Positions 3,486 through 58,513 are shown, numbered from the stretch's first letter. The stretch: 64,000 nt of DNA from Fidelibacterota bacterium (GCA_034716895.1 JAYEKW010000062.1:17885-81884); one strand, 5' to 3'. Notes: generated from the letters alone by a model not told the origin. Numbers and translations: made by a program.

Positions 3486-3774
3486 CAGAACCCAGCATCA
3501 CATAACCCTTTGCAAATGGTCACGGTTTTGTGAGTTTCCGCACATAACTCGGTTAATTCGTTGATTACTTTTCGTTTACCACCCCTGCTTATTGTGAGCA
3601 AACCTACTGGGGTTATACCATTTTCAGTTCGATCTGTCTGGTAGAGTTGTCATTGCCAGTCCCTTTGGGACGTAGCAATCTCCAGAATTATGGTAGGCTT
3701 CAGAGTTCGCCGCGCGTTGCTCGCGAAGACGAATACCGCGCATATTGAACTGTAATTGGGGTTAGACCTTGGAA

Positions 3775-5070
3775 TCATTGATCCCCTGCAGCGTGTTTAA
3801 TATGAATATCGTGTTGGGGAAACGGAATTTCGATATTGTTGGACTTTAGAGTATCCCAAATTTTAAAAAGGACTTCACTTTTAATGTTTCCAATGCCATT
3901 CTTGGGGTCACGAATCCAGATGCTCAAGGCAAAATCAATAGAACTATCTCCAAACCCAGTGAGTAAACACAGCGGTGGAGGGGTCTTTATGATTCGCGGC
4001 ATTCCCTTAATGGCCTGAAGCACCAATTTAGCAACCTGGTGAGGATCGGAACTATAGGCAACTCCGAAAGGGATTTTTAGACGAATACGTGTATTTGAGT
4101 AAGACCAGTTGATCACCTGTTGCGTGATCAGGTCTTCATTTGGTATGAGATGTTCATGGCCATCCCGGGTATCCACACTGATGTAACGGGCTTTCATGCG
4201 TGTAACCCAGCCATAGACATTCCCGATTTGGATGACATCACCCGGTTTTATTGAATGATCACTAAGCAAAATGATCCCGCTCAATAAATTTGAAGCCACC
4301 TTTTGTAATCCAAATCCGATACCAACCCCCAGCGCACCTCCAAATACGGTAAGAGCAGTAAAATTAACGCCAATGCTATTGAGTACTACCACGCCAATGC
4401 TAAAATAGACTACGCCACTAACAGTCTTGCTGATCAGAACTGAAGCCGAGGGGGTGAGACCAGGAATCTTCCCGATTTGTTTGCTTAGATACTTGCTGAA
4501 CCAGCTCCCTGCACGTAAAGCGACCAGCAAAAATAGACCCGCCTTAACCATGGATAAAATAGTTATTCGGATTGTACCGAATGTGAATCCCATTTGGTCT
4601 AGAAAGTTCAGCATGGGTTCCAGTACATCAAGAATGCTCAAAGCTGCTATAATCCATGCGGCAATAGAGACAGTGAGCGCCCAAAAATGATCCAACACAA
4701 CAGAGGTGACCAGCTTAATGGTTATCCACACAACAAGGAGAGTTAGTACCAGATTTATTAGTATGGGCGTCGTCCCAAACTCACTATAAATGAGGCTGGA
4801 GATTCCCAGGAGTACTGTCAGATGAGTTGCTGTGACCTGTTCAACCAGAGCATTGAGGAAATTGGTGAATAATTGTTGGGATGGAGGAATATTTTTGGTC
4901 TTGTCCAGGAAGAGGGGGCGCACCTGTCGGCTAATCAGGATACTTGCACCCAGAAGAATGAAAATTATGAATAGTTGAACCAGATTTTGTATGATGAACA
5001 CATTGTCTATAAACCAGGTTTTCCAAATATGAAACAGGTTGACTAACGTTTGAGAATCAAATTTTGGCAT
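3775..5070 (-). CDS. Mechanosensitive ion channel, MscS family
   Basis: 431 aa with multiple N-terminal TM helices and the MscS core PGDVIQIGNVYGWVTRMKARYISVDTRDGHEHLIPNEDLITQQVINWS. Confidence 0.85.
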   Translation of the reverse strand: MPKFDSQTLVNLFHIWKTWFIDNVFIIQNLVQLFIIFILLGASILISRQVRPLFLDKTKNIPPSQQLFTNFLNALVEQVTATHLTVLLGISSLIYSEFGTTPILINLVLTLLVVWITIKLVTSVVLDHFWALTVSIAAWIIAALSILDVLEPMLNFLDQMGFTFGTIRITILSMVKAGLFLLVALRAGSWFSKYLSKQIGKIPGLTPSASVLISKTVSGVVYFSIGVVVLNSIGVNFTALTVFGGALGVGIGFGLQKVASNLLSGIILLSDHSIKPGDVIQIGNVYGWVTRMKARYISVDTRDGHEHLIPNEDLITQQVINWSYSNTRIRLKIPFGVAYSSDPHQVAKLVLQAIKGMPRIIKTPPPLCLLTGFGDSSIDFALSIWIRDPKNGIGNIKSEVLFKIWDTLKSNNIEIPFPQHDIHIKHAAGDQ

Positions 5071-11266: not shown

Positions 11267-11365
11267 AGGCAAAAACAGAAGGAATGAAAGCAGATGCTAA
11301 ATCTGAGTATCTAAAATAATTAGCTACTTTAAAAGATGGAAGAAAAGATCTTCAAAGCAAGTATG

Positions 11366-11513
11366 ACGCCACCGCAAAAAGTTCCTTACGGTTGGAAAAT
11401 CATGCAATATGCACGTACATCAATAATAATAACCAGATAGTATAATATTGACTATGTCTATAAATACCAATACTATGCGACCTCGCGGTTAGACTTTTTG
11501 CGAGGCCGTCAAT
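11366..11513 (-). repeat. MITE-like element, copy C (diverged, minus orientation)
   Basis: ccaccgcaaaaagttccttacggttggaaaatcatgcaatatgc matches the reverse complement of the 3' end of copies A and B. The far end (agactttttgcgaggccgtcaat) matches the rc of the 5' TIR. Confidence 0.7.
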
Positions 11514-13836: not shown

Positions 13837-14448
13837 ATGATGAATACATTTGTTAATGTAATAATATTGATGTTGATGCTTTTGAACCCGTTTCTGTTGG
13901 TTGTTTATCTCACTGACATCATGAGAAATAAAAGTGACAGATATTTTGCAAGGTTAATGTTTTCATCAGGCCTGATTTCTATAACTGTATTTTCTCTATT
14001 TGCAGCAGTGGGTGATTATATATTTAGAACTGTACTGCAAGCTGAAATGGCTTCCTTTCAAATATTTGGTGGGATTATATTTCTCATTATTGCTTTAAAA
14101 TTTGTATTCAACAGCGAATCTGCAATGGACAGTTTGCGAGCCGATTCAAAACATCTAAGTACAAATATCGCTATGCCAATCATGGTTGGCCCCGGAACCA
14201 TTGGCGTGAGTATAATGGCTGGTGAAAGACTCGAGTTAAAGATGGCTATTCTTGCGGTTGTAGTGAGTGTAACCATATCAATCACTATCATCGTTCTTCT
14301 GAAGAAGCTATTTGATGTTATTGCCAGAAAACGAGAGTCCCTGATTGAGCAATACATCGCTGTTTCAGGTAAAGTAACCGCCTTGATCCTGGGGACTTAT
14401 TCTATTGATATGATAATGGCAGGATTAAAAATCTGGCTAAATAAATAG
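13837..14448 (+). CDS. MarC family (UPF0056/NAAT) integral membrane protein
   Basis: 203 aa with six hydrophobic segments. N-terminal NPF...Y motif typical of MarC. Confidence 0.7.
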   Translation: MMNTFVNVIILMLMLLNPFLLVVYLTDIMRNKSDRYFARLMFSSGLISITVFSLFAAVGDYIFRTVLQAEMASFQIFGGIIFLIIALKFVFNSESAMDSLRADSKHLSTNIAMPIMVGPGTIGVSIMAGERLELKMAILAVVVSVTISITIIVLLKKLFDVIARKRESLIEQYIAVSGKVTALILGTYSIDMIMAGLKIWLNK

Positions 14449-14613
14449 CAACGTAAGTAGCCCGTATATTTTATAAAGCAGTACTCTTTGACTTGTTATT
14501 CCAATTTCTGACTGCTTATGTCGGAATAAATCGGTCTTCAACGGTCATACCGTCCGTTTTCGGTTAATGGTAAAGCCAAACAAATCTAGAACAAAATTAA
14601 ATTACACAACTAT

Positions 14614-14849
14614 GATGGTCTCGCAAAAAGTACCTCTCGCCCGCCTGCGTATAACTTCGTGCGGGCAGGCAGAGCACGCAGAGCGTTGTATTGAGCCCTT
14701 CGGTTAAGCTCAGGAACCACCTGTCGAAATAGTGCAGAGTATTGATATTAATGGATATAGAAGTATTTGCGTTATGTGGTAAAGATTAAATGAGTTAGGG
14801 CGTATTTGATGATTTTTCAACCGTAAGGAACTTTTTGCGGTTTCGTCAA
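14614..14849 (+). repeat. MITE-like intergenic element, copy A (with a ~55-bp internal insertion relative to copy B)
   Basis: Near-identical to 17941-18121 apart from the extra block cgttgtattgagcccttcggttaagctcaggaaccacctgtcgaaatagtg. The termini tctcgcaaaaagtacc / ggaactttttgcggtttcg form terminal inverted repeats. Confidence 0.85.
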
Positions 14850-15236
14850 CTTTCAATCCAGATATAGTATGATCTAGTCATATACAACCGAATTTCGCGT
14901 TTTCCAGTCAGATCAGTGCAAACTCCAGTAAATACAAATCTCGCACACAGGAAGTCAAACACAATGACAGTGCTTGCATTTAAGCATGTGGCATGGTAAT
15001 ATATCGTGAACTAATCATTAGTGGACATATAGTAGCGCATGCTATTATTAGTATACTGTTATATTGTTTTGTAATAAGCAAAAAGAAAAGACGTGAAGGG
15101 GGATAGGGGACGAGCAAACTTCTGGAGCAACAACACCAGGTTATCCAATACAGTATACGACAGGTAATGGGTATGTTTAGGCTGGAGAAAACAAAAACTA
15201 AGAAAAAACCGATTATGGGACAGAATTTATAACATT

Positions 15237-15905
15237 ATGAAAGTACAAAAAAAAGAACCTCTGGTAATTAAGGATTGTGCGCTTATCGCCCTGGCAACTG
15301 GCAGGAAAGCTCGGACACTCAAAGAACTACGCGATAATCTTGAAATAATTGAATCGGAAAGTATTTACTACCATTTCTGGGGCAGTCTTCTGCGCCCCCG
15401 TTTTGAGGATGCGGAATATCATAATGATTTTGCTGCGTGGGCCGCTCATAGTTTGAATGATAAAAAAATGGCCGAACAACTCGGGGTGGTGGATCCTACA
15501 ACATTTACAACCATGGATAATCTGCGATTTGAGTTACTGGAAATTATTGATGAAAGAATAGATGAGTTAGATGTTTTGCCCACAGCAAGCCGGGATAAGC
15601 AATTTGAATTTATCAGCTCAGAGATTGTTGTGTTTACAACCATGCAGACAGTCATTGAACCTGAGATAATGAAAACGCTTGTGTTAGAACTATCACTGGG
15701 CAGTATTTTTTATCACTTTATCGATGCGCGACGCAGGACATCCGAATCAATTGATGATTTCAGCCATTGGCTCATGTCATTTGGTGATGAATATGAAGAT
15801 GCCATCAACGGCATCGCCGATATTGACCCATACTTTTCACCCCTCACCGATTTACGCAATCAGTTGAGTGAAACCCTAATGAACCAGATACAGGATAAAA
15901 AATGA
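15237..15905 (+). CDS. Conserved hypothetical protein, translationally coupled to treT
   Basis: 222 aa, acidic and soluble. Its stop overlaps the treT start (ATGA at 15902-15905). No recognisable catalytic motif. Confidence 0.6.
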   Translation: MKVQKKEPLVIKDCALIALATGRKARTLKELRDNLEIIESESIYYHFWGSLLRPRFEDAEYHNDFAAWAAHSLNDKKMAEQLGVVDPTTFTTMDNLRFELLEIIDERIDELDVLPTASRDKQFEFISSEIVVFTTMQTVIEPEIMKTLVLELSLGSIFYHFIDARRRTSESIDDFSHWLMSFGDEYEDAINGIADIDPYFSPLTDLRNQLSETLMNQIQDKK

Positions 15906-17143
15906 ATCGTTTGATATTTGATTACGCGCCGATAACAGGACTGGATGTAATTGAACAGCTCCAACAGTTAGCCAAACCGCTTAAAGGGTTGCGCGTTGTG
16001 CATGTCAATTCCACCAAAGCCGGGGGTGGGGTTGCAGAAATATTGGATAAAATGATCCCGCTCATGAACGATTTGGGAATTGATACGAGCTGGGAAGTTA
16101 TCAATGGAAATCCTGATTTTTATAGCTGCACCAAACATTTCCACAATGCTATTCAAGGCAATAATGTACAGATACCAGCGCGTTTGCTACAGGCTTACGA
16201 GAGGACAAACACGGAAAATGCCAGTCGTCTGGAAGCAAAACTCCGCGATGCAGATGTGGTCTTTATACATGATCCGCAACCGGCTCCACTGCTGCAAAAC
16301 ATTAAAGGCAGAAAGGGAAAATGGATCTGGAGATGTCACATCGATGCAAATAAACCTAACAGGCCAGTTTGGAAGTATTTGCGAAATTATATCGCTCAGT
16401 ATGATGCCAGTATATTCTCCCTGGCTGCTTTCGCCCAACCCATGCCGCATCCTGTTTATCTCATTCCTCCCAGTATTGATCCATTGAATGAGAAAAATAT
16501 TGAGTTGGATACCAATGAGATATCTTCAGTTTGTGATCAGTTCAATATCGACCGGGATGCCCCTTTGTTGGTGCAGATCTCTCGTTTCGATCGCTTTAAG
16601 GACCCCATTGGAGTCATTCAGGCTTTGAAGCATGCAAAAAAGTTTGTACCCAATCTGCAATTGGTTCTTGCAGGGGGTGGCGCCAGCGATGATCCTGAAG
16701 GTGAGGAAGTATTAGAGGAAGTGAGATTGGCCTCAAATGGTGATCCGGATATTCACATTTTAGAGCTTCCCAACGATGCTCATCGCCAAATAAACGCACT
16801 TCAATCAGCGGCTACCATCGTCATTCAGAAATCAATTAGGGAAGGCTTTGGCTTAACCGTTACTGAGGGTATGTGGAAGCAAAAACCAGTTATCGGGGGA
16901 GATACTGGTGGGATACGACTCCAAGTGATAAATCATCATACGGGTTTTTTGGTTAATTCTCCTGAAGGGGCTGCCTTGCGTATTCGACATCTTCTTGGTA
17001 ACCCACAAAAATTATCAGAAATGGGTGTGAAGGCAAAAAAGTTTGCGAGAGAAAACTTTTTAATCACAAGGCATATCCGTGAATACTTGACTCTCATGCT
17101 TTCGTTGGTAAGCGGCACAAAACACAGAATTGACCTAAAATAA
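15902..17143 (+). CDS. treT: Trehalose glycosyltransferring synthase TreT (GT4; NDP-glucose + glucose to trehalose)
   Basis: 413 aa. Collinear with archaeal/bacterial TreT blocks: VHVNSTKAGGGVAEIL, FHNAIQGN, HDPQPAPL, WIWRCHID, PPSIDPLNEKNIEL, QISRFDRFKDP, DDPEG, SIREGFGLTVTEGMWKQKPVIG, HTGFLV, AKKFARENFLITRH. Confidence 0.8.
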   Translation: MNRLIFDYAPITGLDVIEQLQQLAKPLKGLRVVHVNSTKAGGGVAEILDKMIPLMNDLGIDTSWEVINGNPDFYSCTKHFHNAIQGNNVQIPARLLQAYERTNTENASRLEAKLRDADVVFIHDPQPAPLLQNIKGRKGKWIWRCHIDANKPNRPVWKYLRNYIAQYDASIFSLAAFAQPMPHPVYLIPPSIDPLNEKNIELDTNEISSVCDQFNIDRDAPLLVQISRFDRFKDPIGVIQALKHAKKFVPNLQLVLAGGGASDDPEGEEVLEEVRLASNGDPDIHILELPNDAHRQINALQSAATIVIQKSIREGFGLTVTEGMWKQKPVIGGDTGGIRLQVINHHTGFLVNSPEGAALRIRHLLGNPQKLSEMGVKAKKFARENFLITRHIREYLTLMLSLVSGTKHRIDLK

Positions 17144-17166
17144 AACCATTACTGGAAGATTATTAT

Positions 17167-17940
17167 ATGAAGAGACTAAACAATGATATAGACCTGCGTA
17201 AATTTTATAAAAAGCTGGATTCGGATGGCCCAAAATTGCTCTTCTTGGATTATGATGGAACATTGGCACCTTTCTGCGATGACCCACAGTTGGCCTATCC
17301 ATATCCAGGTATAAAAAGTATGCTTGATGCAATCATCAGTAATCCCACAGTACGGCTAGTTATTATCACGGGAAGGTCTATTAGCGAACTGCAAGCTTTA
17401 CTTGACCTGAAACAGGATGTAGAGATATGGGGCACCCACGGTCATGAGCACCTGCTCCCCAATGGAGACTATTCCTTGGTTGATCTTAGCCCGAATCAAA
17501 ACATGGGTTTAAGCTTGGGTGTTGATGCGGCTTTGTCTGTAGAGCCTTTGCTCAGGGTAGAAGAGAAACCTGGTGCGGTTGCTTTTCATTGGCGAACTAT
17601 TCAAGCCAAAGATGTTGAGAGATTTCAAAACCAATTAACAATGAAACTTGAAAATATTTCCCAGCATCACGAGTTGGTACTTAAGAAATTTGATGGGGGG
17701 CTGGAGCTTATCTCACCAACAATGGACAAAGGTAGGGCTGTTCGAGAAGTGCTGCGAGAAGTAACCCCAAATACGACAGTGGCTTACCTTGGAGATGATC
17801 TTACGGATGAGGATGCTTTCTGGGAACTAAAATATAAAGGACTGACAGTACTTGTTAGAGATGAATTGCGTGAAACACAGGCGAACCTCTGGATACAACC
17901 ACCTGACGAGCTTCTTCAGTTTTTAGAAAAATGGAAATAG
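17167..17940 (+). CDS. otsB: Trehalose-6-phosphate phosphatase (HAD family)
   Basis: LLFLDYDGTLAPF (HAD motif I), LVIITGRS, and YLGDDLTDEDAF (motif III). 257 aa. Confidence 0.85.
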   Translation: MKRLNNDIDLRKFYKKLDSDGPKLLFLDYDGTLAPFCDDPQLAYPYPGIKSMLDAIISNPTVRLVIITGRSISELQALLDLKQDVEIWGTHGHEHLLPNGDYSLVDLSPNQNMGLSLGVDAALSVEPLLRVEEKPGAVAFHWRTIQAKDVERFQNQLTMKLENISQHHELVLKKFDGGLELISPTMDKGRAVREVLREVTPNTTVAYLGDDLTDEDAFWELKYKGLTVLVRDELRETQANLWIQPPDELLQFLEKWK

Positions 17941-18121
17941 GATGGTCTCGCAAAAAGTACCTCTCGCCCGCCTGCGTATAACTTCGTGCGGGCAGGCAGA
18001 GCACGCAGAGGCGCAGAGTATTGATATTTATGGATTTAGGGGTATTTGCGTTATGTGGTTAATATTAAATGGGTTAGGGCGTATTTGATGATTTTTAAAT
18101 TACTTTTTGCGGTTTCGTCAA
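17941..18121 (+). repeat. MITE-like intergenic element, copy B, inserted between otsB and otsA
   Basis: Begins at the base after the otsB stop codon. 181 bp, with the same TIRs as copy A. Confidence 0.85.
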
Positions 18122-18167
18122 ATAGAAGAAACTGAACGAAAAATTATCCAAGAGGTAAGCAAAAAAA

Positions 18168-19643
18168 ATGAATATGAAACGCCACAGATTAATTATCGTA
18201 TCAAATAGGTTGCCAGTTGTAGTAAATAAAAATATAAGTGGATCACTAGAGGTGAAGCCGGGATCGGGAGGACTGGTCACGGCGCTTGCCCCCGTTTTAC
18301 GTAACCGCGGAGGTGTTTGGCTTGGGTGGTCCGGACTAACTACAGAAAATCCTCGAAAGATTGGGAATTTGCTGTCTTCTCTCGATGACAGAATTGGGTA
18401 TTCACTGGAATCTGTAACATTGGATGAGAACGAGATTGAAAACTACTATAAGGGATTTTCCAATGAAACTTTATGGCCTCTTTTCCATGATCTGATTGAC
18501 CATTGTAAATTTAAACCAGAGTATTGGAAGACCTACCAAAGTGTCAATATGAAATTTGCTCAATCATTAAAAAAGATCATTAAAAAAGATGATTTTATCT
18601 GGATTCATGACTATCACCTGATAAGCATGATCCGTTTTCTAAGAGAGCTGGGTGTAAACAATAAAATTGGTTTCTTCCTGCATATACCCTTTCCGCCTAC
18701 AGATATCTATACACGCCTACCTTGGCGAGTTGATATCTTAGGTGATCTTCTGCAATATGACCTGGTTGGATTTCAATCAGCTCGCGATAGGAGGAATTTC
18801 ACAAGCAGTGTTCGGACACTGATCGACAAACCAAAAATTGAAGGGAAGGGGCAAGTCATTAACATCGTGCGAAAAACACGAACTATGAGGGCTGGAGTCT
18901 TTCCGATCAGCATAGATTATAAAGAATTCGACGACTCAGCAAGTTCAAAACCTGTGACACACAAGGTGGTGACGAAAGAAAAATATTTTGAGGAGCAAAA
19001 GGTAATACTGGGCGTTGATCGTTTAGATTACACAAAAGGTATCCCTGAGCGTCTGGAAGCATTCAGAGAGGCTCTCCGAAGGTATCCAGTCCTGTTGGGC
19101 AAGTTGAGCTTGATCCAAATTCTAGTCCCAAGTCGCAGAGATATACCACATTATGAGAACCTCAAAATTAAAATTGAAAGATTGGTTAGTGAGATAAATG
19201 GGGAGTTTTCACATTCCGGGTGGACACCAATTGAATACCACTTCCGAGCAGTCAGCCGAGATGCATTGTTATCCTATTATCGAATTGCTGAGATCGCGAT
19301 TGTGACTCCATTGAAGGATGGGATGAATCTGGTAGCAAAAGAGTACTGTGCATCAAATCCAGAAGGTATTCTCATCTTGAGTGAATTTGCCGGCGCGGCG
19401 GCTCAGCTAAAATCTGGAGCTTTACTTGTCAATCCACATGACTCGGTAGCGTGTGCTGAAGCAATTCAAAGAGCGGTGCACATGCCAGAATCCGAACGTA
19501 AGGTTAGGATGAAGAAACTCAGAAAAAATGTACATCGCTACGATATTTATTGGTGGGTAGAGAATTTCTTGGATGCCGCATTTGCATCGAAGTTGAGTGA
19601 GTTTTCTCTTATTGCAGACTATACCCCCCTCGCAGAAGGATGA
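18168..19643 (+). CDS. otsA: Alpha,alpha-trehalose-phosphate synthase (GT20)
   Basis: RLIIVSNRLPVVV...GSGGLVTALAPVLRNRGGVWLGWSG...IWIHDYHL...LGVDRLDYTKGI...NPHD are canonical OtsA motifs. 491 aa. Confidence 0.9.
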   Translation: MNMKRHRLIIVSNRLPVVVNKNISGSLEVKPGSGGLVTALAPVLRNRGGVWLGWSGLTTENPRKIGNLLSSLDDRIGYSLESVTLDENEIENYYKGFSNETLWPLFHDLIDHCKFKPEYWKTYQSVNMKFAQSLKKIIKKDDFIWIHDYHLISMIRFLRELGVNNKIGFFLHIPFPPTDIYTRLPWRVDILGDLLQYDLVGFQSARDRRNFTSSVRTLIDKPKIEGKGQVINIVRKTRTMRAGVFPISIDYKEFDDSASSKPVTHKVVTKEKYFEEQKVILGVDRLDYTKGIPERLEAFREALRRYPVLLGKLSLIQILVPSRRDIPHYENLKIKIERLVSEINGEFSHSGWTPIEYHFRAVSRDALLSYYRIAEIAIVTPLKDGMNLVAKEYCASNPEGILILSEFAGAAAQLKSGALLVNPHDSVACAEAIQRAVHMPESERKVRMKKLRKNVHRYDIYWWVENFLDAAFASKLSEFSLIADYTPLAEG

Positions 19644-19727
19644 ATAAGACAACGGTTAAATTTCATGAAACAACTGGAGCATGAAGCCCAGTTATCGTGA
19701 CGAAAACTTGACATCAAGGAGGAAAGC

Positions 19728-20471
19728 ATGTTACGTAGCGTAAAAGAAATTATGGCGTGTAGTCTAGAATCTAAGTCTGGGGAAATTGGTAAATCAAAAG
19801 ACTTATTATTTGATGATGACAAGTGGGTGATCCGATATTTAGTGGCGGATACGGGTAAATGGCTTCTGAGAAGGCAAATTCTTATTTCCCCGATTTCGTT
19901 GAAGGGAATAGATTGGGATACACAGCAATTACCCGTTGACCTTTCCAAAGAACAAATAGAGTCTGCACCCAGTATAGAAACAGATATGCCCGTTTCCAGG
20001 CAGTTTGAAATTGAATTGTCCAAGCATAACAATTGGCCTTATTACTGGACCGGTGAGCAGGCAATGGGAGCTATGCTGACACCGGGAGGCGCATACCCAA
20101 CTATCTTTGATAAAGACAAGTCGGAGGCTGATGTTAAACGTGATAAGCATCTCCGCTCAGTAAATGAGGTTACAGGCTACCATCTCTTAGCGGAAGATGG
20201 AGAGATCGGTCATGTTGAAGACTTTATTGTTGATGATGAGGCTTGGGCAATCCGCTATATCGTTGTGAATACTCGGAACTGGCTCCCCGGTAAAAAGGTT
20301 CTGGTTTCACCATTTTGGTCCAAAACAATTGATTGGGCTGAAAGGAAAATCCTGTTCGGGGTTACCATGGAGCAGATCAAAAACAGTCCAGAGTATGACC
20401 CAACAAAGTCTATCACTCCAGATTATGAGGATCTTCTGTTCGATTATTACGGAATACTGAAAGACATTTAA
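19728..20471 (+). CDS. Tandem PRC-barrel domain protein
   Basis: Two repeats of G..IG.V.DF..DD..W.IRY.V....W...K.L.SP. Confidence 0.65.
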   Translation: MLRSVKEIMACSLESKSGEIGKSKDLLFDDDKWVIRYLVADTGKWLLRRQILISPISLKGIDWDTQQLPVDLSKEQIESAPSIETDMPVSRQFEIELSKHNNWPYYWTGEQAMGAMLTPGGAYPTIFDKDKSEADVKRDKHLRSVNEVTGYHLLAEDGEIGHVEDFIVDDEAWAIRYIVVNTRNWLPGKKVLVSPFWSKTIDWAERKILFGVTMEQIKNSPEYDPTKSITPDYEDLLFDYYGILKDI

Positions 20472-21031
20472 GAGCATGAGTAACATCTGTATCAAATAAA
20501 AGTATGTTCATTTAACAACAATCTGAGAATATACCGGACCATAGATCAAGACAGATTAGCATAGCTGCAATTAATAATAATGGTTCATCATAATAATGCG
20601 TACCTGGATACAATCATTAAGATTGGGGGTCAATAAAATATTCTGGGGTACAAAGGTATAAGGGTTATAAAGACTGTGTGAGAATAGGGCAACTCTTACC
20701 CCATGCTTCAGCTTGGGGTTTAACCGACCACAAGAAATTCGGGGGGGGCTATAGCCCAACTGTGTAGCTGATTAATCTTGGGCTAAAGCCCTTTTTTGTG
20801 TGGATTCTAGATCCCCAAGCTGCATTTCGATAAACTCAATAACCAGCATAGGGTAATTGATAAGTTATTGTTATTCATGTCATTGCATAAGCTCAGTGTA
20901 TCATAATCGTTGTAACTGACTCAAATACAGGTGATTACAGATTTTCGTGAGAAACTTCTGTTGTTAATGTCCCTCCCGTTGGCGAGGAGTATACAAACCG
21001 TAAGAGTCCAAGAAAAATTAATATAGTAATA

Positions 21032-21045
21032 GTTAGTGCACTAAC
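21032..21045. promoter_or_regulatory. Perfect 14-bp palindrome GTTAGTGCACTAAC, candidate MarR-family operator
   Basis: Located ~80 bp upstream of the marR-like gene start. MarR dimers bind such palindromes. Confidence 0.4.
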
Positions 21046-21123
21046 AACTTGTGTAGAGATGATTCGTTTGATATATTCAGCCGTGACTTAAAGAAATAAA
21101 TCAAACGTGAAGAGTAAATTAAA

Positions 21124-21639
21124 ATGACCAAAACAACTGATTCAAAACCCGAAGATAGACAGCTCCCATTTGATCTTCAAATCTTGCAGGCGTTACGTCA
21201 AATTATTCGTGCCATTGATATTCATTCACGGAAACTTAAATCCACCTACAATACCACGACCCCCCAGCTCATTTGCCTGGGTATTATTAAAGATCACGGT
21301 TCTTCCACAGTTACTCGAATTGCCGGGCAAGCCTATTTGAGCACAAGTACGGTAGTGGGAATCCTGGATCGTCTGGAAAAAGAAAGCTTGATATTGAGGG
21401 AAAGAGATAAAAAGGATCGTCGGCTCTGGAATGTCATTCTCACAGAAAAAGGGAAAGCACTTTTAAAGCAGATTCCGTCCCCGTTGCACGATGGTTTACT
21501 CAATGCTTTGCAAAATCTTCCAGAGCGTGAGCAAGCCAATATTGCAGTCTCCCTGTTAAAGATCGTTAATCTGATGGGTGCTGAATCAGTAGAAGCTGCT
21601 CCTATTTTGGAGACCGCACAGATACTCCCCGTAAAATAA
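21124..21639 (+). CDS. MarR-family transcriptional regulator
   Basis: 171 aa with a winged HTH (ITRIAGQAYLSTSTVVGILDRLEKESLILRERDKKDRR). Confidence 0.8.
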   Translation: MTKTTDSKPEDRQLPFDLQILQALRQIIRAIDIHSRKLKSTYNTTTPQLICLGIIKDHGSSTVTRIAGQAYLSTSTVVGILDRLEKESLILRERDKKDRRLWNVILTEKGKALLKQIPSPLHDGLLNALQNLPEREQANIAVSLLKIVNLMGAESVEAAPILETAQILPVK

Positions 21640-22065: not shown

Positions 22066-23493
22066 ATGGCTTTTCTAGATTATGTAATTTTCGTCATCTA
22101 TATGTTGATCATCCTGGGGGTTGGCTATTATTTCTATCGTAAAAATGAATCAGCTGAAGATTACTTCGTAGGTGGTCGTAGCATTTCTCCAACTCATATT
22201 GGTTTGTCAATTGCTGCTACAGATGTTGGTGGTGGCTTTTCAATCGGTTTGGGGGGTCTTGGATATCTGATGGGACTCTCAGGAAGCTGGTTATTATTTA
22301 CAGGGTTATTGGGAGCTTGGTTATCGGCTGTTTTTATTATTCCTCGACTAAAAACTTTGGATTTAGAGCAAGGTTTTATGACTTATCCTGACTTTCTACG
22401 TCATCGGTACAATGGAAAAGTCGCCATGGTAGCAGCTGTGATCTCAGGTGTTGGGTATCTGGGATTTACCAGTGGTCAAATCCTGGCAGGAGCGAAGCTC
22501 ATGTCTGGTTCAGTGATCTCAACAGCACCCTGGGGACTTGAACCACTCACATTCTCTATCTATGTCATCGGGTTTATCATCGTGGCTTACACAGCTCTCG
22601 GTGGTTTGAAGGCAGTTATTTACACCGATACTGTACAATGGATCATCTTAATTAGTGGTCTTATCCTGTTTGCCATCCCCTTTGCCATCATGGAAACTGG
22701 TGGTCTTGGGGCCTTGCGTGAGCAACTCCCTGTGGAATATTTTTCTTTCTCGAACATACAGCCAATTACATTTATCAACTGGCTCCTGACCATCGTACCA
22801 ATTTGGTTGGTAGCCATGACTTTGTATCAACGGGTCTTTGCCAGTCGCTCGGTTAAAGATGCTCAAAAAGCCTGGTATATTGCCGGTGCTTTTGAATATC
22901 CCGTCATGGCTTTTACCGGTGTCATCCTGGGTATGATTGCCCGGGTATTATTCCCTGGTGTTGAAGCGGAAATGGGAGTGCCCATTCTGTTAAGGGAAGT
23001 ACTGCCAATAGGAATTACGGGAATTGTAATTGCGAGTTACTTCTCCGCTATAATGTCCACAGCAGATAGCTGCATACTTGCTTCATCCGGAAATTTTGTA
23101 AATGATTTAATCGAGAAATTGAGTCCCAAATCATATAATGTAAAACAGCTGATCCATATTTCGCAGCTTGTAACCTTAGCAGTTGGAATAATTGCCATTC
23201 TTTTGGCCAGCTCTTTCACCACGGTTCTGGAAACCATACTGTATGCCTATCAGTTCATGGTTGCCGGGCTTTTTATACCAACTCTGGCTGCATTCTTCTG
23301 GAAAAAAGCAACTCCGCTAGCTGCATTATGGGCTATGATTGGTGGTGGCACGTCTGCCCTGACTATGATTATTACCCAGGTCGATTTGCCTTTGGGCTTG
23401 GATCCCACGTTTTATGGTATGCTAATTTCCGCAGTTACACTCGTTGCAGTTTCATATTTAAGGAAGGATGAGGTGAACCATCTCCAAGACTGA
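22066..23493 (+). CDS. Sodium:solute symporter family (SSS) transporter
   Basis: 475 aa, ~13 TM. The N-terminus DYFVGGRSISP...GLSIAATDVGGGFSIGLGGLGY is typical of PutP/PanF-type SSS carriers. Confidence 0.85.
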   Translation: MAFLDYVIFVIYMLIILGVGYYFYRKNESAEDYFVGGRSISPTHIGLSIAATDVGGGFSIGLGGLGYLMGLSGSWLLFTGLLGAWLSAVFIIPRLKTLDLEQGFMTYPDFLRHRYNGKVAMVAAVISGVGYLGFTSGQILAGAKLMSGSVISTAPWGLEPLTFSIYVIGFIIVAYTALGGLKAVIYTDTVQWIILISGLILFAIPFAIMETGGLGALREQLPVEYFSFSNIQPITFINWLLTIVPIWLVAMTLYQRVFASRSVKDAQKAWYIAGAFEYPVMAFTGVILGMIARVLFPGVEAEMGVPILLREVLPIGITGIVIASYFSAIMSTADSCILASSGNFVNDLIEKLSPKSYNVKQLIHISQLVTLAVGIIAILLASSFTTVLETILYAYQFMVAGLFIPTLAAFFWKKATPLAALWAMIGGGTSALTMIITQVDLPLGLDPTFYGMLISAVTLVAVSYLRKDEVNHLQD

Positions 23494-23557: not shown

Positions 23558-24328
23558 ATGAAAATTGTACCAGAAAGAGTACAGGACGTACTGGCATTGG
23601 CGGAATCGTTGGCTCTTGAGCATCATTACTCCAAGATATTTGCCAAGATACCCATAGCTCTCATACCAGAGTTTATGGCCCAGGGATATGAGGAAGAAGC
23701 ACGCATTCCAGGTTTAGGTGAAAAGCCCAAAGGAATCGCTTTTATGTCAAACTTTATTACCAAGAAACGTAAAAAGCCACATAAAACGAGCGAGATAATG
23801 AAAGTAAAGTCTGCCACACTTACACAGGGGCTTTCACGAAAAAGCACAATACTTTCAAAGGATTATTCAATTAAAGAAGCTGAAATAAAAGATAGCCCAG
23901 GCTTGGCATTACTCTACCGTGAGATTTTTGCGAGCTATCCGTTTCCAATTACGGATCCAATTTTTGTCGCTCAAAGCATGGCTGAAAATGTGCGTTATTT
24001 TGTGATCAGACACAAACGGGAAATTGTGGCTGTAGCTGCGGCCGAAATGGACTATGATTGTCGAGCTGTGGAAATGACTGATTTTGCTACAATTCCAGCC
24101 TATAGAGGAAATCAGCTGGGACAAATGCTTTTGGATCACATGGAAACAGCTATGCTTACAGAACCCATAGATACAGCCTATACCATTGCCAGGGCTGTGT
24201 CTTACGGAATGAATATTACCTTTGGACGGGCAGATTACGAATTCGCCGGCACGCTAATTAATAATACTCATATCGGCGGATCCATCGAAAGCATGAATGT
24301 CTGGTATAAACAACTCATCCATATTTAA
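23558..24328 (+). CDS. ablB: GNAT acetyltransferase, putative beta-lysine N6-acetyltransferase
   Basis: 256 aa. Has a C-terminal GNAT fold (AAAEMDYDCRAVEMTDFATIPAYRGNQLGQMLL). It lies immediately upstream of a lysine 2,3-aminomutase in the same orientation, the arrangement known for N-epsilon-acetyl-beta-lysine synthesis. Confidence 0.65.
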   Translation: MKIVPERVQDVLALAESLALEHHYSKIFAKIPIALIPEFMAQGYEEEARIPGLGEKPKGIAFMSNFITKKRKKPHKTSEIMKVKSATLTQGLSRKSTILSKDYSIKEAEIKDSPGLALLYREIFASYPFPITDPIFVAQSMAENVRYFVIRHKREIVAVAAAEMDYDCRAVEMTDFATIPAYRGNQLGQMLLDHMETAMLTEPIDTAYTIARAVSYGMNITFGRADYEFAGTLINNTHIGGSIESMNVWYKQLIHI

Positions 24329-24351: not shown

Positions 24352-25839
24352 ATGCATGGAAAACTACATTCAAACAAAGAATTTAATAAATATCAAACTG
24401 CTGAGACTATTGATGATCTACCTGACCTCGTGACTGATCATTCTGAACTTGATGAAATTAGCGAGATTGAGATACCGGATGCTATTAAAGATCCAGTAAC
24501 TCTGCAGGATCTAGCGCACCGAGACTTTTCGTCAGATTTGTTTTGGCAGAAAATCCCAGCTTTTAAAAATGTAGACCGCGAAACTTTTATGGACGTGAGC
24601 TTCCAAAATAGCAATTCTGCAACAAAAGTAGATCATCTTGATGAGCTTTTGGAAGATTTGGTTCCCGCAGCTTTCCTTGATGATGTGCGTGAAGGAATGA
24701 GGTTGGCGCCCATGAATCTGCGCCTTTCCCCCTATGTTATTAGTCTCATCGATTGGGATAACCCCTATGATGATCCGCTTCGGATTCAATTTATTCCGGT
24801 GGCATCCACGCGTTTGGCTGATCATCCAAAATTGTCATTAGATTCCCTGGAGGAGCAGGCGGATTCTCCTACATCGGGTCTGGTGCATCGATATTTTGAT
24901 AAAGTGCTTTTTCTACCCACTGATGTGTGTCCGGTCTATTGTCGGTTCTGTACGCGCAGTTATGCCATTGGGAGTGATACAGATCAGGTGACAAAAATGA
25001 GTTTTAAGGCGGTCCCCAATACTTGGAATAAGGCGTTTGCCTACATTGCTTCGAGACCGGAAATTGAAGATGTCGTCATTTCTGGTGGAGATACTTACAT
25101 GTTAAAACCTCACCGCATTAAACAAATCGGTGAAACACTATTAGCCATACCCCATGTACGACGGTTGCGCTTTGCCACAAAAGGGCCAGCAGTGATGCCC
25201 ATGAAAATTATTTCTCAACCGGAGTGGACAAATGCCATAATCGACATTGTCAATCAGGGACGGGAAATGAGCAAAGAGGTGGTCGTTCATACTCATTTCA
25301 ATCATAGCAGCGAGATTACGTCCATTACCCGAGAAGCCATGGATCTGTTTTTTAAAGCCGGTGTTACGGTACGCAATCAGAGTGTGCTCTTACGGGGTGT
25401 TAACGATACACCAGAAGCAATGATCAACCTGGTAAGACAATTATCACTCATGAATGTTCAGCCCTACTATGTCTATCAACATGATATGGTTCAAGGGACT
25501 GAAGAATTGAGGACCACGCTAAAAGATGGTCTAGAGCTGGAACGCCACGTGAGAGGTGCGACTGCTGGATTTAACACCCCCACATTTGTAACGGATGCGC
25601 CTGGTGGTGGTGGGAAGAGAGATATCCATAGTTATGATTATTATGACGAGGTAACGGGAATTTCTGTTTACCGCAGCCCCAGTGTTGAAGATGAAATGGT
25701 CTATCTCTATTATGATCCCATTCACCTGTTGTCAGAAAAAGGTCAAAAACTCTGGGAGGATCCTTCGATGCATGAAAAAATGATCCTGGATGCCATTGAG
25801 AAGGCGGGTTACCAGGATTTTTCACAGGCTTATGAATAG
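24352..25839 (+). CDS. ablA: Lysine 2,3-aminomutase (radical SAM, KamA/AblA family)
   Basis: Has CPVYCRFCTRSYAIG (CxxxCxxC) and the KamA N-terminal SPYVISLIDWDNPYDDPLRIQFIP. The ORF carries a ~50-aa N-terminal extension, and the true start may be an internal Met. Confidence 0.85.
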   Translation: MHGKLHSNKEFNKYQTAETIDDLPDLVTDHSELDEISEIEIPDAIKDPVTLQDLAHRDFSSDLFWQKIPAFKNVDRETFMDVSFQNSNSATKVDHLDELLEDLVPAAFLDDVREGMRLAPMNLRLSPYVISLIDWDNPYDDPLRIQFIPVASTRLADHPKLSLDSLEEQADSPTSGLVHRYFDKVLFLPTDVCPVYCRFCTRSYAIGSDTDQVTKMSFKAVPNTWNKAFAYIASRPEIEDVVISGGDTYMLKPHRIKQIGETLLAIPHVRRLRFATKGPAVMPMKIISQPEWTNAIIDIVNQGREMSKEVVVHTHFNHSSEITSITREAMDLFFKAGVTVRNQSVLLRGVNDTPEAMINLVRQLSLMNVQPYYVYQHDMVQGTEELRTTLKDGLELERHVRGATAGFNTPTFVTDAPGGGGKRDIHSYDYYDEVTGISVYRSPSVEDEMVYLYYDPIHLLSEKGQKLWEDPSMHEKMILDAIEKAGYQDFSQAYE

Positions 25840-26249: not shown

Positions 26250-26465
26250 AAAGGAGTCTGATTCCACCTGGCAGATTATAAGGAGAATTTAGGGATATAG
26301 TTCATTATGTTTTTTTGCCATACATAATGGTAAGAAAATTAGCACTAAAAGGGCGAGGATATACAATCTTGACGAAACCGCTAGAAGTATCTGAAAATTC
26401 ATGAAATGTGCCCTAAAACCATTAAATACAACCACATATAGTGAATGCTCCTAATCCATATATAT

Positions 26466-26560
26466 CAACACTTTGCGTCATTTCGATGAACTCAATACAA
26501 CGCTCTGCGCGCTCTGCGCCCTGCGAGAGGGACTTTTTGCGAAGGCGTCAATCTTAAAAG
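26466..26560 (-). repeat. Partial MITE-like element (5' portion, minus orientation)
   Basis: The rc reads attgacgccttcgcaaaaagtccctctcgcagggcgcagagcgcgcagagcgttgtattgag, collinear with the 5' end of copy A but lacking its internal hairpin. Confidence 0.65.
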
Positions 26561-26571
26561 AAGGATTAAGT

Positions 26572-27222
26572 ATGAAAATTAAAAGAGGGAAACAGCTTGG
26601 TTTATTCGTCATCATATTAAGTATGTTTATGCTTATAGCTTGTGAACCGGGGAATCAGGAAAATGTCGATATCAAAACAAGTCAACAGGCATTGGTTGAG
26701 CAAGATGAAATTAAAGAAGTCATCAAACGAGCTGAGGCCGCTGAAGCTCGGATGGCAGAACTGGTGAGCAGACTTGAGAACATTGAAGATCAGTTGGGCG
26801 AAAGAGATCAAAAGGTCTCAGAGCTAAAGCAGCAATTGGTTAACTACAAGAGAGCTATAACTGTTTTTGTCATAATTGTTTTTGTATTACTACTAATTAT
26901 TCTCTACAGTATGCGTGAAAATATCCAAAGCCTCAAATCATTTCCTATGGAATTCACCAGGTTTGGTCAGCGTTTGAGGAAAGCAACAAAACGCAGTTCT
27001 GGTAGGAGCGGTCGTGGAAAAGAAAAGTCTGGGGAGAAAATAAAAAAAGCACAACCAGGTTCTTCTCGATCAGCCAGAAAGAAGATGAGCAGGAAGCCAG
27101 GAAAAACAGATGAACCCAAATCAAAAGCTGAACCAAATTCAACCCGGACCAGCACCAGGAAAACCAAAGATATTGGGAAAAAGACAGTCCCAAAGCCTGC
27201 TTCAGGAAAACCTAAAAAATAG
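26572..27222 (+). CDS. Coiled-coil lipoprotein with a second TM segment and a basic Lys/Arg/Ser-rich tail
   Basis: Start MKIKRGKQLGLFVIILSMFMLIAC (lipobox), preferred over the ORF-track start at 26473, which lies inside the repeat. Confidence 0.55.
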   Translation: MKIKRGKQLGLFVIILSMFMLIACEPGNQENVDIKTSQQALVEQDEIKEVIKRAEAAEARMAELVSRLENIEDQLGERDQKVSELKQQLVNYKRAITVFVIIVFVLLLIILYSMRENIQSLKSFPMEFTRFGQRLRKATKRSSGRSGRGKEKSGEKIKKAQPGSSRSARKKMSRKPGKTDEPKSKAEPNSTRTSTRKTKDIGKKTVPKPASGKPKK

Positions 27223-56551: not shown

Positions 56552-58513
56552 TTACTGTAAATATACCATCTTAATCACATCACTTAACCTGCCAGCTGTG
56601 AATCTGGCAAAGTACACACCAGTACTGACCTGGAGATTGGCGTTGTTCAAGCCGTTCCACCTCACGGTGTGCTGACCAGCAGATCTATCAGCTTTCAGAA
56701 GATTCTTTACCACGTGACCCTGGACATCATAGATAATGATTGATACATCAGCGCTTTCCAGTAGATCATACTTGATCGTAGTGGTCGGGTTAAATGGATT
56801 TGGGAAAGCTGGATATAGTTTGACCTGCTGTGGTTGAACAGGAGACTCATCAATACTCACGATCGCTAGATTTTCATAATAATTAAAGGTGCCGTCGTAG
56901 TTTCCAATAGCCAGGTCCAGATCCCCATCACCGTTCAGATCCACCAGAGCTGGTGTGGCATTTTGACTGGCAGTTAACCCGGCAACCTCATCTGGATACT
57001 CTACCCAACTACCGCTTTCATAACTAAAGAATTGAATTTCATGAAACAGATCACCTGTGATCATATCTAAATTACGATCCAGATTTACATCACCCAAAGT
57101 CAGGATCGCATTACTGCCCACATCGAAACCGCTGAACAGACCGAGGTTTTCAGTCCATTGGGCATCAGCGGCCGTACCAGTGTTTTCAAAATAGGATATG
57201 CCGCCATCTTCCCGGCCAATGAACAGATCCAGATCATGGTCAAGATCAAAATCATATAACCGGGGACTGGACCATCCACCAGCATTGATCCCGGAGAACA
57301 TCCCGGACTGGTAGCTAAACCCGTTCTCAGTATTATGATGATAGTAAAGGTTACCACTGAGATCACCCACAACCAGATCGATCAGACCATCATCATCCAG
57401 ATCACCGGCAGCAACAGCTGAATAAATGGAATGATCAATACTGCTAAAGATACTGTGATCGGCGCTCCAGGCTGGTCCGTACATATTACCAGTATTTTCA
57501 AAGTATTTTAGGTCACCCATCTGACTACCACTGACCAGGTCCAGGTCTCCGTCCCCATCAAAATCAATGAATACGGGATTACTGGCACCACCCACATCCA
57601 GGACCCCGCCAAATAGCGAGGTGACGGCTGTCCAACTGGCTGAGCTATTGGTACCGCTATTTTCGTAGTATTGCAGTGGACCTGAAGCAGATCCATGCAC
57701 CAGATCAGGCTTGCCATCTCCGGTGAGATCGACCAGGCAGGGAGAGTTCCAATAAGTGGTTTGACCCACACTGGAAAACTGCGTGCTGGCATCACTCCAG
57801 TTCCAATTCGATTCATCACCATCGTTACGATAATAATAAAAACCATAGCCATCCCGACCAACAAGCAGATCAGTATCTCCGTCAGAATCCAGGTCAGAGA
57901 ACCAGGGATAAGCGTACAAGCCAACATCGAACCAGGTTTCAGACTCACTCTCCAGGAAAATGGCACTCTCTGACGTTCCCAAGTTTTGGTAATAGCGCAC
58001 ATTGCCGCTTTCACTGTAGCCAACCACCAGGTCATTGTCTCCATCATTGTCCAAATCAGCAAAATGGGGGACGGGGTTGGTGCCCACACTGAGATCGACG
58101 AAAAAATCATCAATTCGAACAAAATCTCCATTTACTGCATCACCGATATTGTCATAGAGTTGGAGCCCGGTAAACCCACCAGAAATAAAATCCAGGTCAC
58201 CATCTGCATCCAGATCGATACACACACCCACCTCACAGTCCAGCTCCTCAACCTCAGCAAACAGGTCTGCACCAGGTTGAAAATGAGGGCTGCTTGCTGA
58301 TCCAGTATTTTCAAAATAGCGGGGTGCAGCACTGATACTCCCCAGGATCAGGTCCTGATCACCATCACCATCCAAATCAGCAAAACGCGGTTGTGAGAAT
58401 GGCAGGGACGGAATGCCACTGGGGTTAAAGATATTATCATTCTGTTGCCACATCTGGGCATATCCCAGACTTGTTAAAAGCAAGGTGCTGATCAGATATT
58501 TAATAAATGGCAT
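56552..58513 (-). CDS. FG-GAP/VCBS repeat beta-propeller protein with a T9SS-type C-terminal sorting domain
   Basis: Has a signal peptide and many DLDGDGDQDL / DLDNDGDNDL FG-GAP Ca-binding repeats. The last ~80 aa (...GVYFARFTAGRLSDVIKMVYLQ) resemble a Por-secretion CTD. Confidence 0.7.
   Translation of the reverse strand: MPFIKYLISTLLLTSLGYAQMWQQNDNIFNPSGIPSLPFSQPRFADLDGDGDQDLILGSISAAPRYFENTGSASSPHFQPGADLFAEVEELDCEVGVCIDLDADGDLDFISGGFTGLQLYDNIGDAVNGDFVRIDDFFVDLSVGTNPVPHFADLDNDGDNDLVVGYSESGNVRYYQNLGTSESAIFLESESETWFDVGLYAYPWFSDLDSDGDTDLLVGRDGYGFYYYRNDGDESNWNWSDASTQFSSVGQTTYWNSPCLVDLTGDGKPDLVHGSASGPLQYYENSGTNSSASWTAVTSLFGGVLDVGGASNPVFIDFDGDGDLDLVSGSQMGDLKYFENTGNMYGPAWSADHSIFSSIDHSIYSAVAAGDLDDDGLIDLVVGDLSGNLYYHHNTENGFSYQSGMFSGINAGGWSSPRLYDFDLDHDLDLFIGREDGGISYFENTGTAADAQWTENLGLFSGFDVGSNAILTLGDVNLDRNLDMITGDLFHEIQFFSYESGSWVEYPDEVAGLTASQNATPALVDLNGDGDLDLAIGNYDGTFNYYENLAIVSIDESPVQPQQVKLYPAFPNPFNPTTTIKYDLLESADVSIIIYDVQGHVVKNLLKADRSAGQHTVRWNGLNNANLQVSTGVYFARFTAGRLSDVIKMVYLQ

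Follow-up and report, generated by a model that had tools for sequence, protein, structure and literature searches.

Two predicted trehalose routes in one conserved gene block of a Fidelibacterota bacterium, with a transposable element inserted between otsB and otsA

In Escherichia coli K-12, the osmoprotective otsBA pair consists of otsB followed by otsA on the same strand, and the two reading frames overlap by 26 nt. In Thermoproteus tenax, the gene of the trehalose glycosyltransferring synthase TreT is immediately preceded by orfY, and the two genes reportedly form an operon. A second T. tenax operon, msc-gt-tpsp, encodes a GT4 protein, PimA-like and devoid of trehalose-forming activity, that activates a GT20 synthase by complex formation; trehalose has been proposed to be synthesized under stress and released through the clustered mechanosensitive channel upon relief (PMC3634074). 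Bacteria and archaea often run several trehalose pathways in parallel. T. tenax possesses TreT together with a trehalose-6-phosphate synthase/phosphatase (TPS/TPP) route (PMC7688234, PMC3634074), and the joint occurrence of TreT and OtsA is widespread among anaerobic alkane-oxidising archaea and their sulfate-reducing partner bacteria (PMC13597711). Here, a 64,000-nt stretch of DNA from an uncultured marine bacterium of the Fidelibacterota (Marinimicrobia), hereafter the window, has been analysed; coordinates count from its first letter. It harbors an orfY-treT-otsB-otsA block at positions 15237-19643. A preliminary description of this stretch had held TreT and OtsAB to be normally alternative solutions, a view contradicted by the parallel routes reported in T. 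tenax (PMC7688234, PMC3634074).

The block is composed of four co-oriented open reading frames (ORFs), in agreement with the initial gene calls:

15237-15905, + strand: orfY homologue, DUF5752 protein, 222 aa
15902-17143, + strand: treT, homologue of the GT4 trehalose glycosyltransferring synthase, 413 aa
17167-17940, + strand: otsB, trehalose-6-phosphate phosphatase (HAD-IIB), 257 aa
18168-19643, + strand: otsA, GT20 trehalose-6-phosphate synthase, 491 aa, full length

The frames of orfY and treT overlap by 4 nt, treT and otsB are 23 nt apart, and otsB and otsA are separated by 227 nt, which include a 179-nt miniature inverted-repeat transposable element (MITE). The block displays the features of an operon, namely co-orientation, short or overlapping spacers and conservation across genomes, with the exception of the 227-nt MITE-containing spacer. 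With the gene identities, the anatomy of the element and the synteny documented below, the block probably represents a stress-responsive trehalose-synthesis operon, in which two routes would share a nucleoside diphosphate (NDP)-glucose donor. In the first module, orfY-treT, TreT would transfer glucose from NDP-glucose to free glucose, yielding trehalose directly. In the second, otsB-otsA, OtsA would form trehalose-6-phosphate from NDP-glucose and glucose-6-phosphate, and OtsB would dephosphorylate it. Drawing on one donor pool with different acceptors, the cell could make trehalose either from free glucose or from glucose-6-phosphate. The claim that one co-oriented block encodes two independent trehalose routes is supported by the family assignments and by the layout.

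Compared with the known systems, the second module resembles E. coli otsBA in gene order, in its two enzyme families and, in the Marinimicrobia relatives, in the overlapping or abutting of the two genes. The order otsB-otsA had been described as the inverse of that of E. coli, which is wrong. The locus differs from the E. coli one by the MITE between the genes, by orfY-treT before them and by a PRC-barrel gene after them, and an RpoS-type regulation is not implied. The first module shares with T. tenax the DUF5752/OrfY gene immediately upstream of the TreT gene, here in a bacterial host, presumably mesophilic and marine, and with the pair joined to otsB-otsA. Among the accessible publications searched, no explicit description of an orfY-treT-otsB-otsA cluster was found.

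The GT4 protein is a bona fide member of the TreT family (EC 2.4.1.245), for which a trehalose-forming activity is predicted. It possesses the TreT-specific N-terminal domain PF21269 (TreT_GT1; 198.5 bits, cutoff 27) and a GT4 domain (PF00534; 82.7 bits). Its best structural matches are the enzymes of Thermoproteus uzoniensis (PDB ID: 6zj4; E 1.3e-126, 426 bits, 49.9% identity over 391 columns) and Pyrococcus horikoshii (PDB ID: 2x6q; E 1.3e-108, 366.7 bits), whereas the next GT4 structures, those of GlgM and of a protein resembling sucrose-phosphate synthase, reach only E ~1e-11 to 3e-11 (45.9 bits). By homology, it groups therefore with characterised TreT and stands apart from the remaining GT4 enzymes (sucrose-phosphate synthase, GlgM, BshA, MshA). 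A grouping with non-trehalose glycosyltransferases, which would have spoken against the preliminary description, is not observed. It carries the motif EGFGLTVTE, of the E-x7-E type. Its score against the NCBIfam equivalog NF041139 is 385.9 bits for a cutoff of 775, as expected of a bacterial homologue since this model is named for Thermococcales.

The TreT reaction has been described as reversible in some archaea, including P. horikoshii (PMC13597711). Accordingly, TreT might here work mainly in reverse, from trehalose and NDP to NDP-glucose and glucose, and the operon would then place a salvage or mobilisation enzyme next to OtsAB-based synthesis. The absence of a trehalase, TreP or TreS among the annotated genes, which make up the smaller part of the 64-kb window, would leave room for such a function. 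However, among solved structures that of the Thermoproteus enzyme is the nearest, and the TreT of T. tenax has been reported as unidirectional (PMC3634074, PMC7688234). Furthermore, no sugar uptake system is adjacent, and the neighbours of the pair in other lineages are stress-protective or release proteins (LEA_2, Usp, MscS), not catabolic ones. A mainly reverse TreT is therefore considered improbable.

OtsB scores 103.7 bits against TIGR00685 (cutoff 68.05) and 78.4 bits against PF02358. Its best PDB matches are trehalose-6-phosphate phosphatases, from E 1e-12, and it displays the HAD motifs I (DYDGT) and IV (GDDLTDE). OtsA covers positions 2-470 of the 473 of the GT20 profile PF00982, with 467.5 bits. 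It is free of frameshifts and contains the motifs SGGLVTAL, WIHDYHL, GVDRLDYTKG and KDGMNLVAKEY, which we take to map to catalytic residues of the E. coli structure. Its best NCBIfam model is the OtsA equivalog TIGR02400, with 547.8 bits, 17 under the cutoff of 564.85. Given this slight deficit and a match of 326.9 bits to the glucosylglycerol-phosphate synthase (GgpS) model, the GT20 and HAD pair might make another solute, such as glucosylglycerol in a GgpS/GgpP-like manner, and the locus would then produce trehalose and a second osmolyte. This has very little likelihood: the OtsA model scores 221 bits above the GgpS model, the top PDB relatives of the synthase are all trehalose-6-phosphate synthases (E 4e-102 to 2e-92), and the phosphatase lies above the trehalose-phosphatase equivalog cutoff.

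The gene order has been compared across related loci. A search of a genome collection with one protein query returned two close relatives, the Neomarinimicrobiota metagenome-assembled genomes (MAGs) L002 and L003. A profile scan of metagenomes added 80 loci, the best matches to the query profile, which were annotated by tblastn. Both MAGs display the order MarR-OrfY-TreT-OtsB-OtsA-PRC-barrel-MscS, followed in L003 by ablB, and their otsB and otsA genes overlap or abut (3581-4372 with 4369-5898 in L002; 9919-10695 with 10683-12260 in L003). The MarR protein of the window is orthologous, with 63% identity, to that of L002, which in the relatives sits immediately upstream of orfY. The PRC-barrel protein is 51% identical to its L003 orthologue, which occupies the same position, directly after otsA, as it also does in L002 and L007. 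The ancestral unit of the lineage would be MarR / orfY-treT-otsB-otsA-PRC-barrel-(MscS), in which synteny suggests MarR as the likely transcriptional regulator and the mechanosensitive channel as a release valve. Its overlapping or abutting reading frames point to one transcript.

Beyond these two MAGs, TreT directly follows OrfY in all loci with at least 700 nt downstream (67/67), usually with abutting or overlapping frames. Loci with at least 2.4 kb beyond TreT, 32 in number, could be evaluated for the second route:

12/32 loci: contiguous OrfY-TreT-OtsB-OtsA
4/32 loci: OtsB and OtsA with inserted genes
3/32 loci: OtsB and a divergent GT20 gene (genuine GT20)
1/32 loci: OtsB and a divergent GT20 homologue (25% identity to OtsA) upstream, divergently oriented
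1/32 loci: OtsB alone
3/32 loci: divergent GT20 alone
8/32 loci: neither OtsB nor GT20

Trehalose-6-phosphate phosphatase and GT20 homologues thus accompany orfY-treT in 20 of the 32 loci. The arrangement, implicitly presented as singular in the preliminary description, recurs in many metagenomic lineages. Variants are also observed: the order OtsA-OtsB-OrfY-TreT is found in the shorter loci L024, L077 and L079, and a Zixibacteria (Zixibacteriota) genome (L085, 86-5419) harbors OrfY-TreT-OtsB-MscS-OtsA, with the MscS gene between otsB and otsA, a layout reminiscent of the T. tenax msc-gt-tpsp operon. Elsewhere, the pair is preceded by LEA_2 in Calditrichia and by Usp in Desulfatiglandales (L086, L087), stress contexts that support the reading of the block as a stress-responsive operon.

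The locus unites two known trehalose modules, here with a MITE, in a well-conserved and widespread combination, every part of which is already known. With OrfY as its constant companion, the "archaeal/thermophile" TreT route is widely joined to the classical OtsBA route and often to a mechanosensitive channel. Trehalose-based stress protection, in Marinimicrobia as in several other uncultured phyla, would thereby receive a genetic basis that is both concrete and conserved.

The census also bears on the resemblance with the msc-gt-tpsp operon of T. tenax. By analogy with the GT-TPSP complex, OrfY and TreT could be protein partners or activators of OtsA and OtsB, without forming an independent route. 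The T. tenax precedent of a GT4 protein activating a GT20 synthase (PMC3634074) would fit, since GT4, GT20 and phosphatase genes, and MscS in the relatives, are likewise clustered. However, the T. tenax activator is PimA-like, whereas the GT4 protein here is a true TreT homologue, ~50% identical to a catalytically characterised TreT and with an intact E-x7-E motif. The T. tenax activation also needed a fused TPSP; synthase and phosphatase are separate here, and the window is devoid of MscS. The eight loci of 32 harboring orfY-treT with neither OtsA nor OtsB nearby indicate that the pair functions on its own. Such a complex is regarded as quite unlikely, and two separate routes are preferred.

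The composition of the block does not set it apart. Its GC content is 0.425 compared with 0.431 for the window, in which 4.4-kb segments average 0.428 +/- 0.022. A horizontally acquired island was ruled out, as the block matches the window mean and shares its gene order with relatives. Nothing points to recent acquisition by horizontal transfer, and within Marinimicrobia this gene order is an inherited one.

The first gene, previously left as unknown, encodes a member of the Pfam family DUF5752 (254.7 bits) and a homologue of T. tenax OrfY (PDB ID: 4cso; E 2.7e-19) by both sequence and fold. The PDB entry is labelled "OrfY protein, transcription factor". The identical 222-aa sequence has been recorded from a Candidatus Marinimicrobia MAG under the name DUF5752 family protein. 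Because the match is to 4cso, the fold is OrfY-specific; it is unique apart from that structure, without evident resemblance to any known DNA-binding domain. OrfY is internally duplicated: residues ~42-110 can be aligned with ~154-218 at 30% identity (E 2e-4), and both halves share the motif SI[YF]YHF ... R ... [ND]DF..W, invariant across the family. A profile search of 1.84 billion representatives (a 50%-clustered library) yielded 986 DUF5752 proteins, most of them ~220 residues long. The literature search returned no paper mentioning DUF5752 and, among accessible papers, none describing T. tenax OrfY or 4cso.

Several DUF5752 proteins are fusions. P0218 (745 aa; L088, 3354-5591) consists of a maltokinase (TreS_Cterm/Mak) followed by a C-terminal DUF5752 domain. 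P0231 (713 aa; L089, 1528-3669), present on 8 contigs from several runs, has the same maltokinase-DUF5752 architecture, and such fusions also occur at L090 and L091. Each of these fusion genes is directly followed by treT with a 4-nt overlap. The cluster around P0218 also harbors a TreS-like amylase, a GT4/GT5 gene and a small MscS-like gene; an MscS gene is found around P0231 and likewise at L090. A further protein, P0230, combines TreZ with a partial DUF5752 domain and may be an artefact.

Tentatively, OrfY could be an obligate partner of TreT at the protein level or a module of the trehalose pathway, for example a regulatory subunit sensing sugars or nucleotide-sugars, and not a transcription factor; this is a possibility more than an expectation. 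The partner model fits better than a classical transcription factor because of the invariable position before treT, the translational coupling, the fusion to a trehalose-pathway enzyme, and the duplicated fold with its aromatic/His/Asp/Arg/Trp motifs. DNA binding may be compatible with the same observations. If the partner model holds, orfY-treT-otsB-otsA(-MscS) would constitute a regulated unit for trehalose synthesis from two acceptors, widespread among uncultured bacteria of sediments and the sea. The present result stands at the level of annotation and is not a discovery; the part that most deserves a further look is OrfY/DUF5752, a family with a solved structure.

The element located between otsB and otsA belongs to a family of four copies in the window:

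14614-14847, + strand: MITE copy A, 234 nt, 389 nt upstream of orfY; flanked by AACTAT (14608-14613) and AACTTT (14848-14853)
17941-18119, + strand: MITE copy B, 179 nt, directly after the otsB stop; flanked by AAATAG at 17935-17940 and 18120-18125
11365-11510, - strand: MITE copy C, 146 nt, diverged, intergenic; terminal inverted repeat matching with 2 mismatches, flanking duplication degraded
26371-26549, - strand: MITE copy D, 179 nt, diverged, intergenic; perfect duplication AATCTT at 26365-26370 and 26550-26555

Copies C and D were found by searching the 64 kb of the window with the terminal repeats, and the four copies were aligned. All are non-coding and intergenic; they occur in both orientations, show internal deletions and range from 146 to 234 nt. 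Their ends form imperfect inverted repeats: GATGGTCTCGCAAAAAGT and the reverse complement of the other end, GACGAAACCGCAAAAAGT, match at 13 of 18 positions and share a perfect 10-nt core, CGCAAAAAGT. The flanking 6-mers differ from copy to copy, which is the pattern of target-site duplications and not of a part of the element. Small size, absence of coding capacity, terminal inverted repeats, copy-specific 6-bp target duplications, dispersal in both orientations and internal deletions are all traits of bacterial MITEs. The possibility that the repeat is a duplicated regulatory region was rejected, because the target duplications differ between copies and two of the copies lie elsewhere in inverted orientation. 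Copy D overlaps the mechanically called TTG start of an ORF at 26473-27222, the real start of which is probably an ATG near 26573.

The left duplication of copy B includes the otsB stop codon TAG (17938-17940), and 42 nt are left between the right duplication and the ATG of otsA. The MITE therefore inserted just behind otsB, leaving both genes intact. The event may be pictured as the landing of the 179-nt element at the stop codon with duplication of AAATAG. The otsB-otsA spacer would measure 42 nt without the element, instead of 227 nt. No copy was found among the 83 related loci, and none lies between otsB and otsA in L002, L003, L005 and L007. The comparison with relatives thus shows a co-oriented block that is kept, with no MITE at the otsB/otsA site. 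The splitting of otsA from otsB by a MITE, as first proposed, is borne out by the inverted repeats, the perfect 6-bp duplication, the further copies and the uninterrupted site in relatives. Furthermore, an independent Logan assembly of run SRR26901924 (L001) covers positions 14820-17970 of the window with one mismatch and ends ~30 nt inside copies A and B. Its breaks within the two copies, the behaviour expected of a repeat, confirm both junctions.

Such an insertion might have uncoupled or silenced otsA, making TreT, with an idle OtsB, the sole working route in this strain. The lengthening of the spacer from 42 to 227 nt would favour such an outcome, as would the long inverted-repeat hairpin that the transcript of copy B could form (-62 kcal/mol), and, with a copy in direct orientation 3.3 kb upstream, the segment is liable to be deleted. 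However, otsA runs over its full length without a frameshift and retains every conserved GT20 motif. The terminator scan detected no terminator-like site in or after copy B and no terminator-like hairpin with a T run, and the z-score of the fold (-1.96) is unremarkable. In addition, the same arrangement in an independent sequencing run indicates that it is stably maintained. Loss of the otsA route is thus deemed improbable. As no intrinsic terminator is predicted, the insertion was probably neutral or only mildly polar for the proposed two-route operon.

Downstream of otsA, the window harbors the following genes, with in addition a 92-aa ORF between marR and the symporter gene:

19728-20471, + strand: tandem PRC-barrel protein (PF05239), 247 aa, directly downstream of otsA
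21124-21639, + strand: MarR-family regulator (PF01047), relocated downstream here
22066-23493, + strand: sodium:solute symporter, PutP-like (PF00474, 157.4 bits); best NCBIfam model a Na/proline symporter, below cutoff
23558-24328, + strand: ablB-like beta-lysine N-acetyltransferase (GNAT; TIGR03827, 273.2 bits, cutoff 205.1)
24352-25839, + strand: ablA-like KamA-family radical-SAM aminomutase (TIGR00238, 239 bits, cutoff 199.2)

The PutP-like symporter is a possible osmoprotectant uptake system. The aminomutase matches the lysine 2,3-aminomutase of Clostridium (PDB ID: 2a5h; E 1.6e-64), with a conserved CxxxCxxC motif and conserved Asp residues aligned to D293 and D330, which we assume to be tied to substrate specificity. 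It is likely a lysine 2,3-aminomutase, and its specificity for lysine is plausible. Against the AblA equivalog it reaches 268.2 bits, below the cutoff of 525.4, and it is therefore termed "ablA-like" and not AblA. The pair resembles the ablA/ablB genes of methanogens and some bacteria in that a GNAT protein above the AblB cutoff is encoded next to an aminomutase of the KamA family whose Asp residues are of the lysine type. It differs from them by the order, ablB then ablA, and by the aminomutase, which has an N-terminal extension of ~70 residues and falls below the AblA cutoff. These two genes probably form a second compatible-solute route, leading to N-epsilon-acetyl-beta-lysine. With the symporter and the ablB/ablA-like genes, the region would resemble an osmoadaptation neighbourhood. 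The suggestion of a dedicated compatible-solute island can be retained in this functional sense, with MarR here and MscS in the relatives as further members; in terms of composition it fails, the GC content being that of the window and the gene order being inherited.

Between the PRC-barrel gene and marR lies a gene-free spacer of 650 nt (20472-21123), at the position where relatives carry MscS. It contains a palindrome, GGGCTATAGCCC, and a hairpin, GGGCTAAAGCCC, followed by a T run, near 20780-20800; neither an Rfam match nor an MscS remnant was detected in it. An Rfam scan of 14300-21300 at E <= 1 gave zero matches, so that neither the long spacers nor the repeat element contain a known riboswitch or small RNA. 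Two palindromes, ACTAATCATTAGT (~15010-15022, upstream of orfY) and GTTAGTGCACTAAC (~21032-21045, upstream of marR), share ACTAA/TTAGT half-sites. As MarR operators they were dropped from the analysis, being not conserved in relatives, the upstream regions of which do not align; they may be operators, or they may be due to chance.

Several observations count against a stress-responsive operon with two working routes. MarR is not adjacent to orfY, and no MscS gene, even as a remnant, was detected in the 64-kb window at E <= 1e-3, so that regulation may differ from that of the relatives. Scans for sigma-70 promoters and intrinsic terminators gave counts at the level of shuffled sequences, uninformative for this phylum. 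The predicted hairpin of the MITE might attenuate the expression of otsA. To these may be added the score of OtsA just under its equivalog cutoff and the direction of TreT, which is assumed. Finally, the fractions of the census are biased toward relatives, because the 80 metagenomic loci are those most similar to the query.

At a distance from the block, a 42-nt unit occurs five times in diverged form (61-79% identity) in the segment 56912-58390. The copies lie inside a minus-strand ORF of 653 aa (56552-58513), which probably encodes a repeat-containing, Asp/Gly-rich protein.

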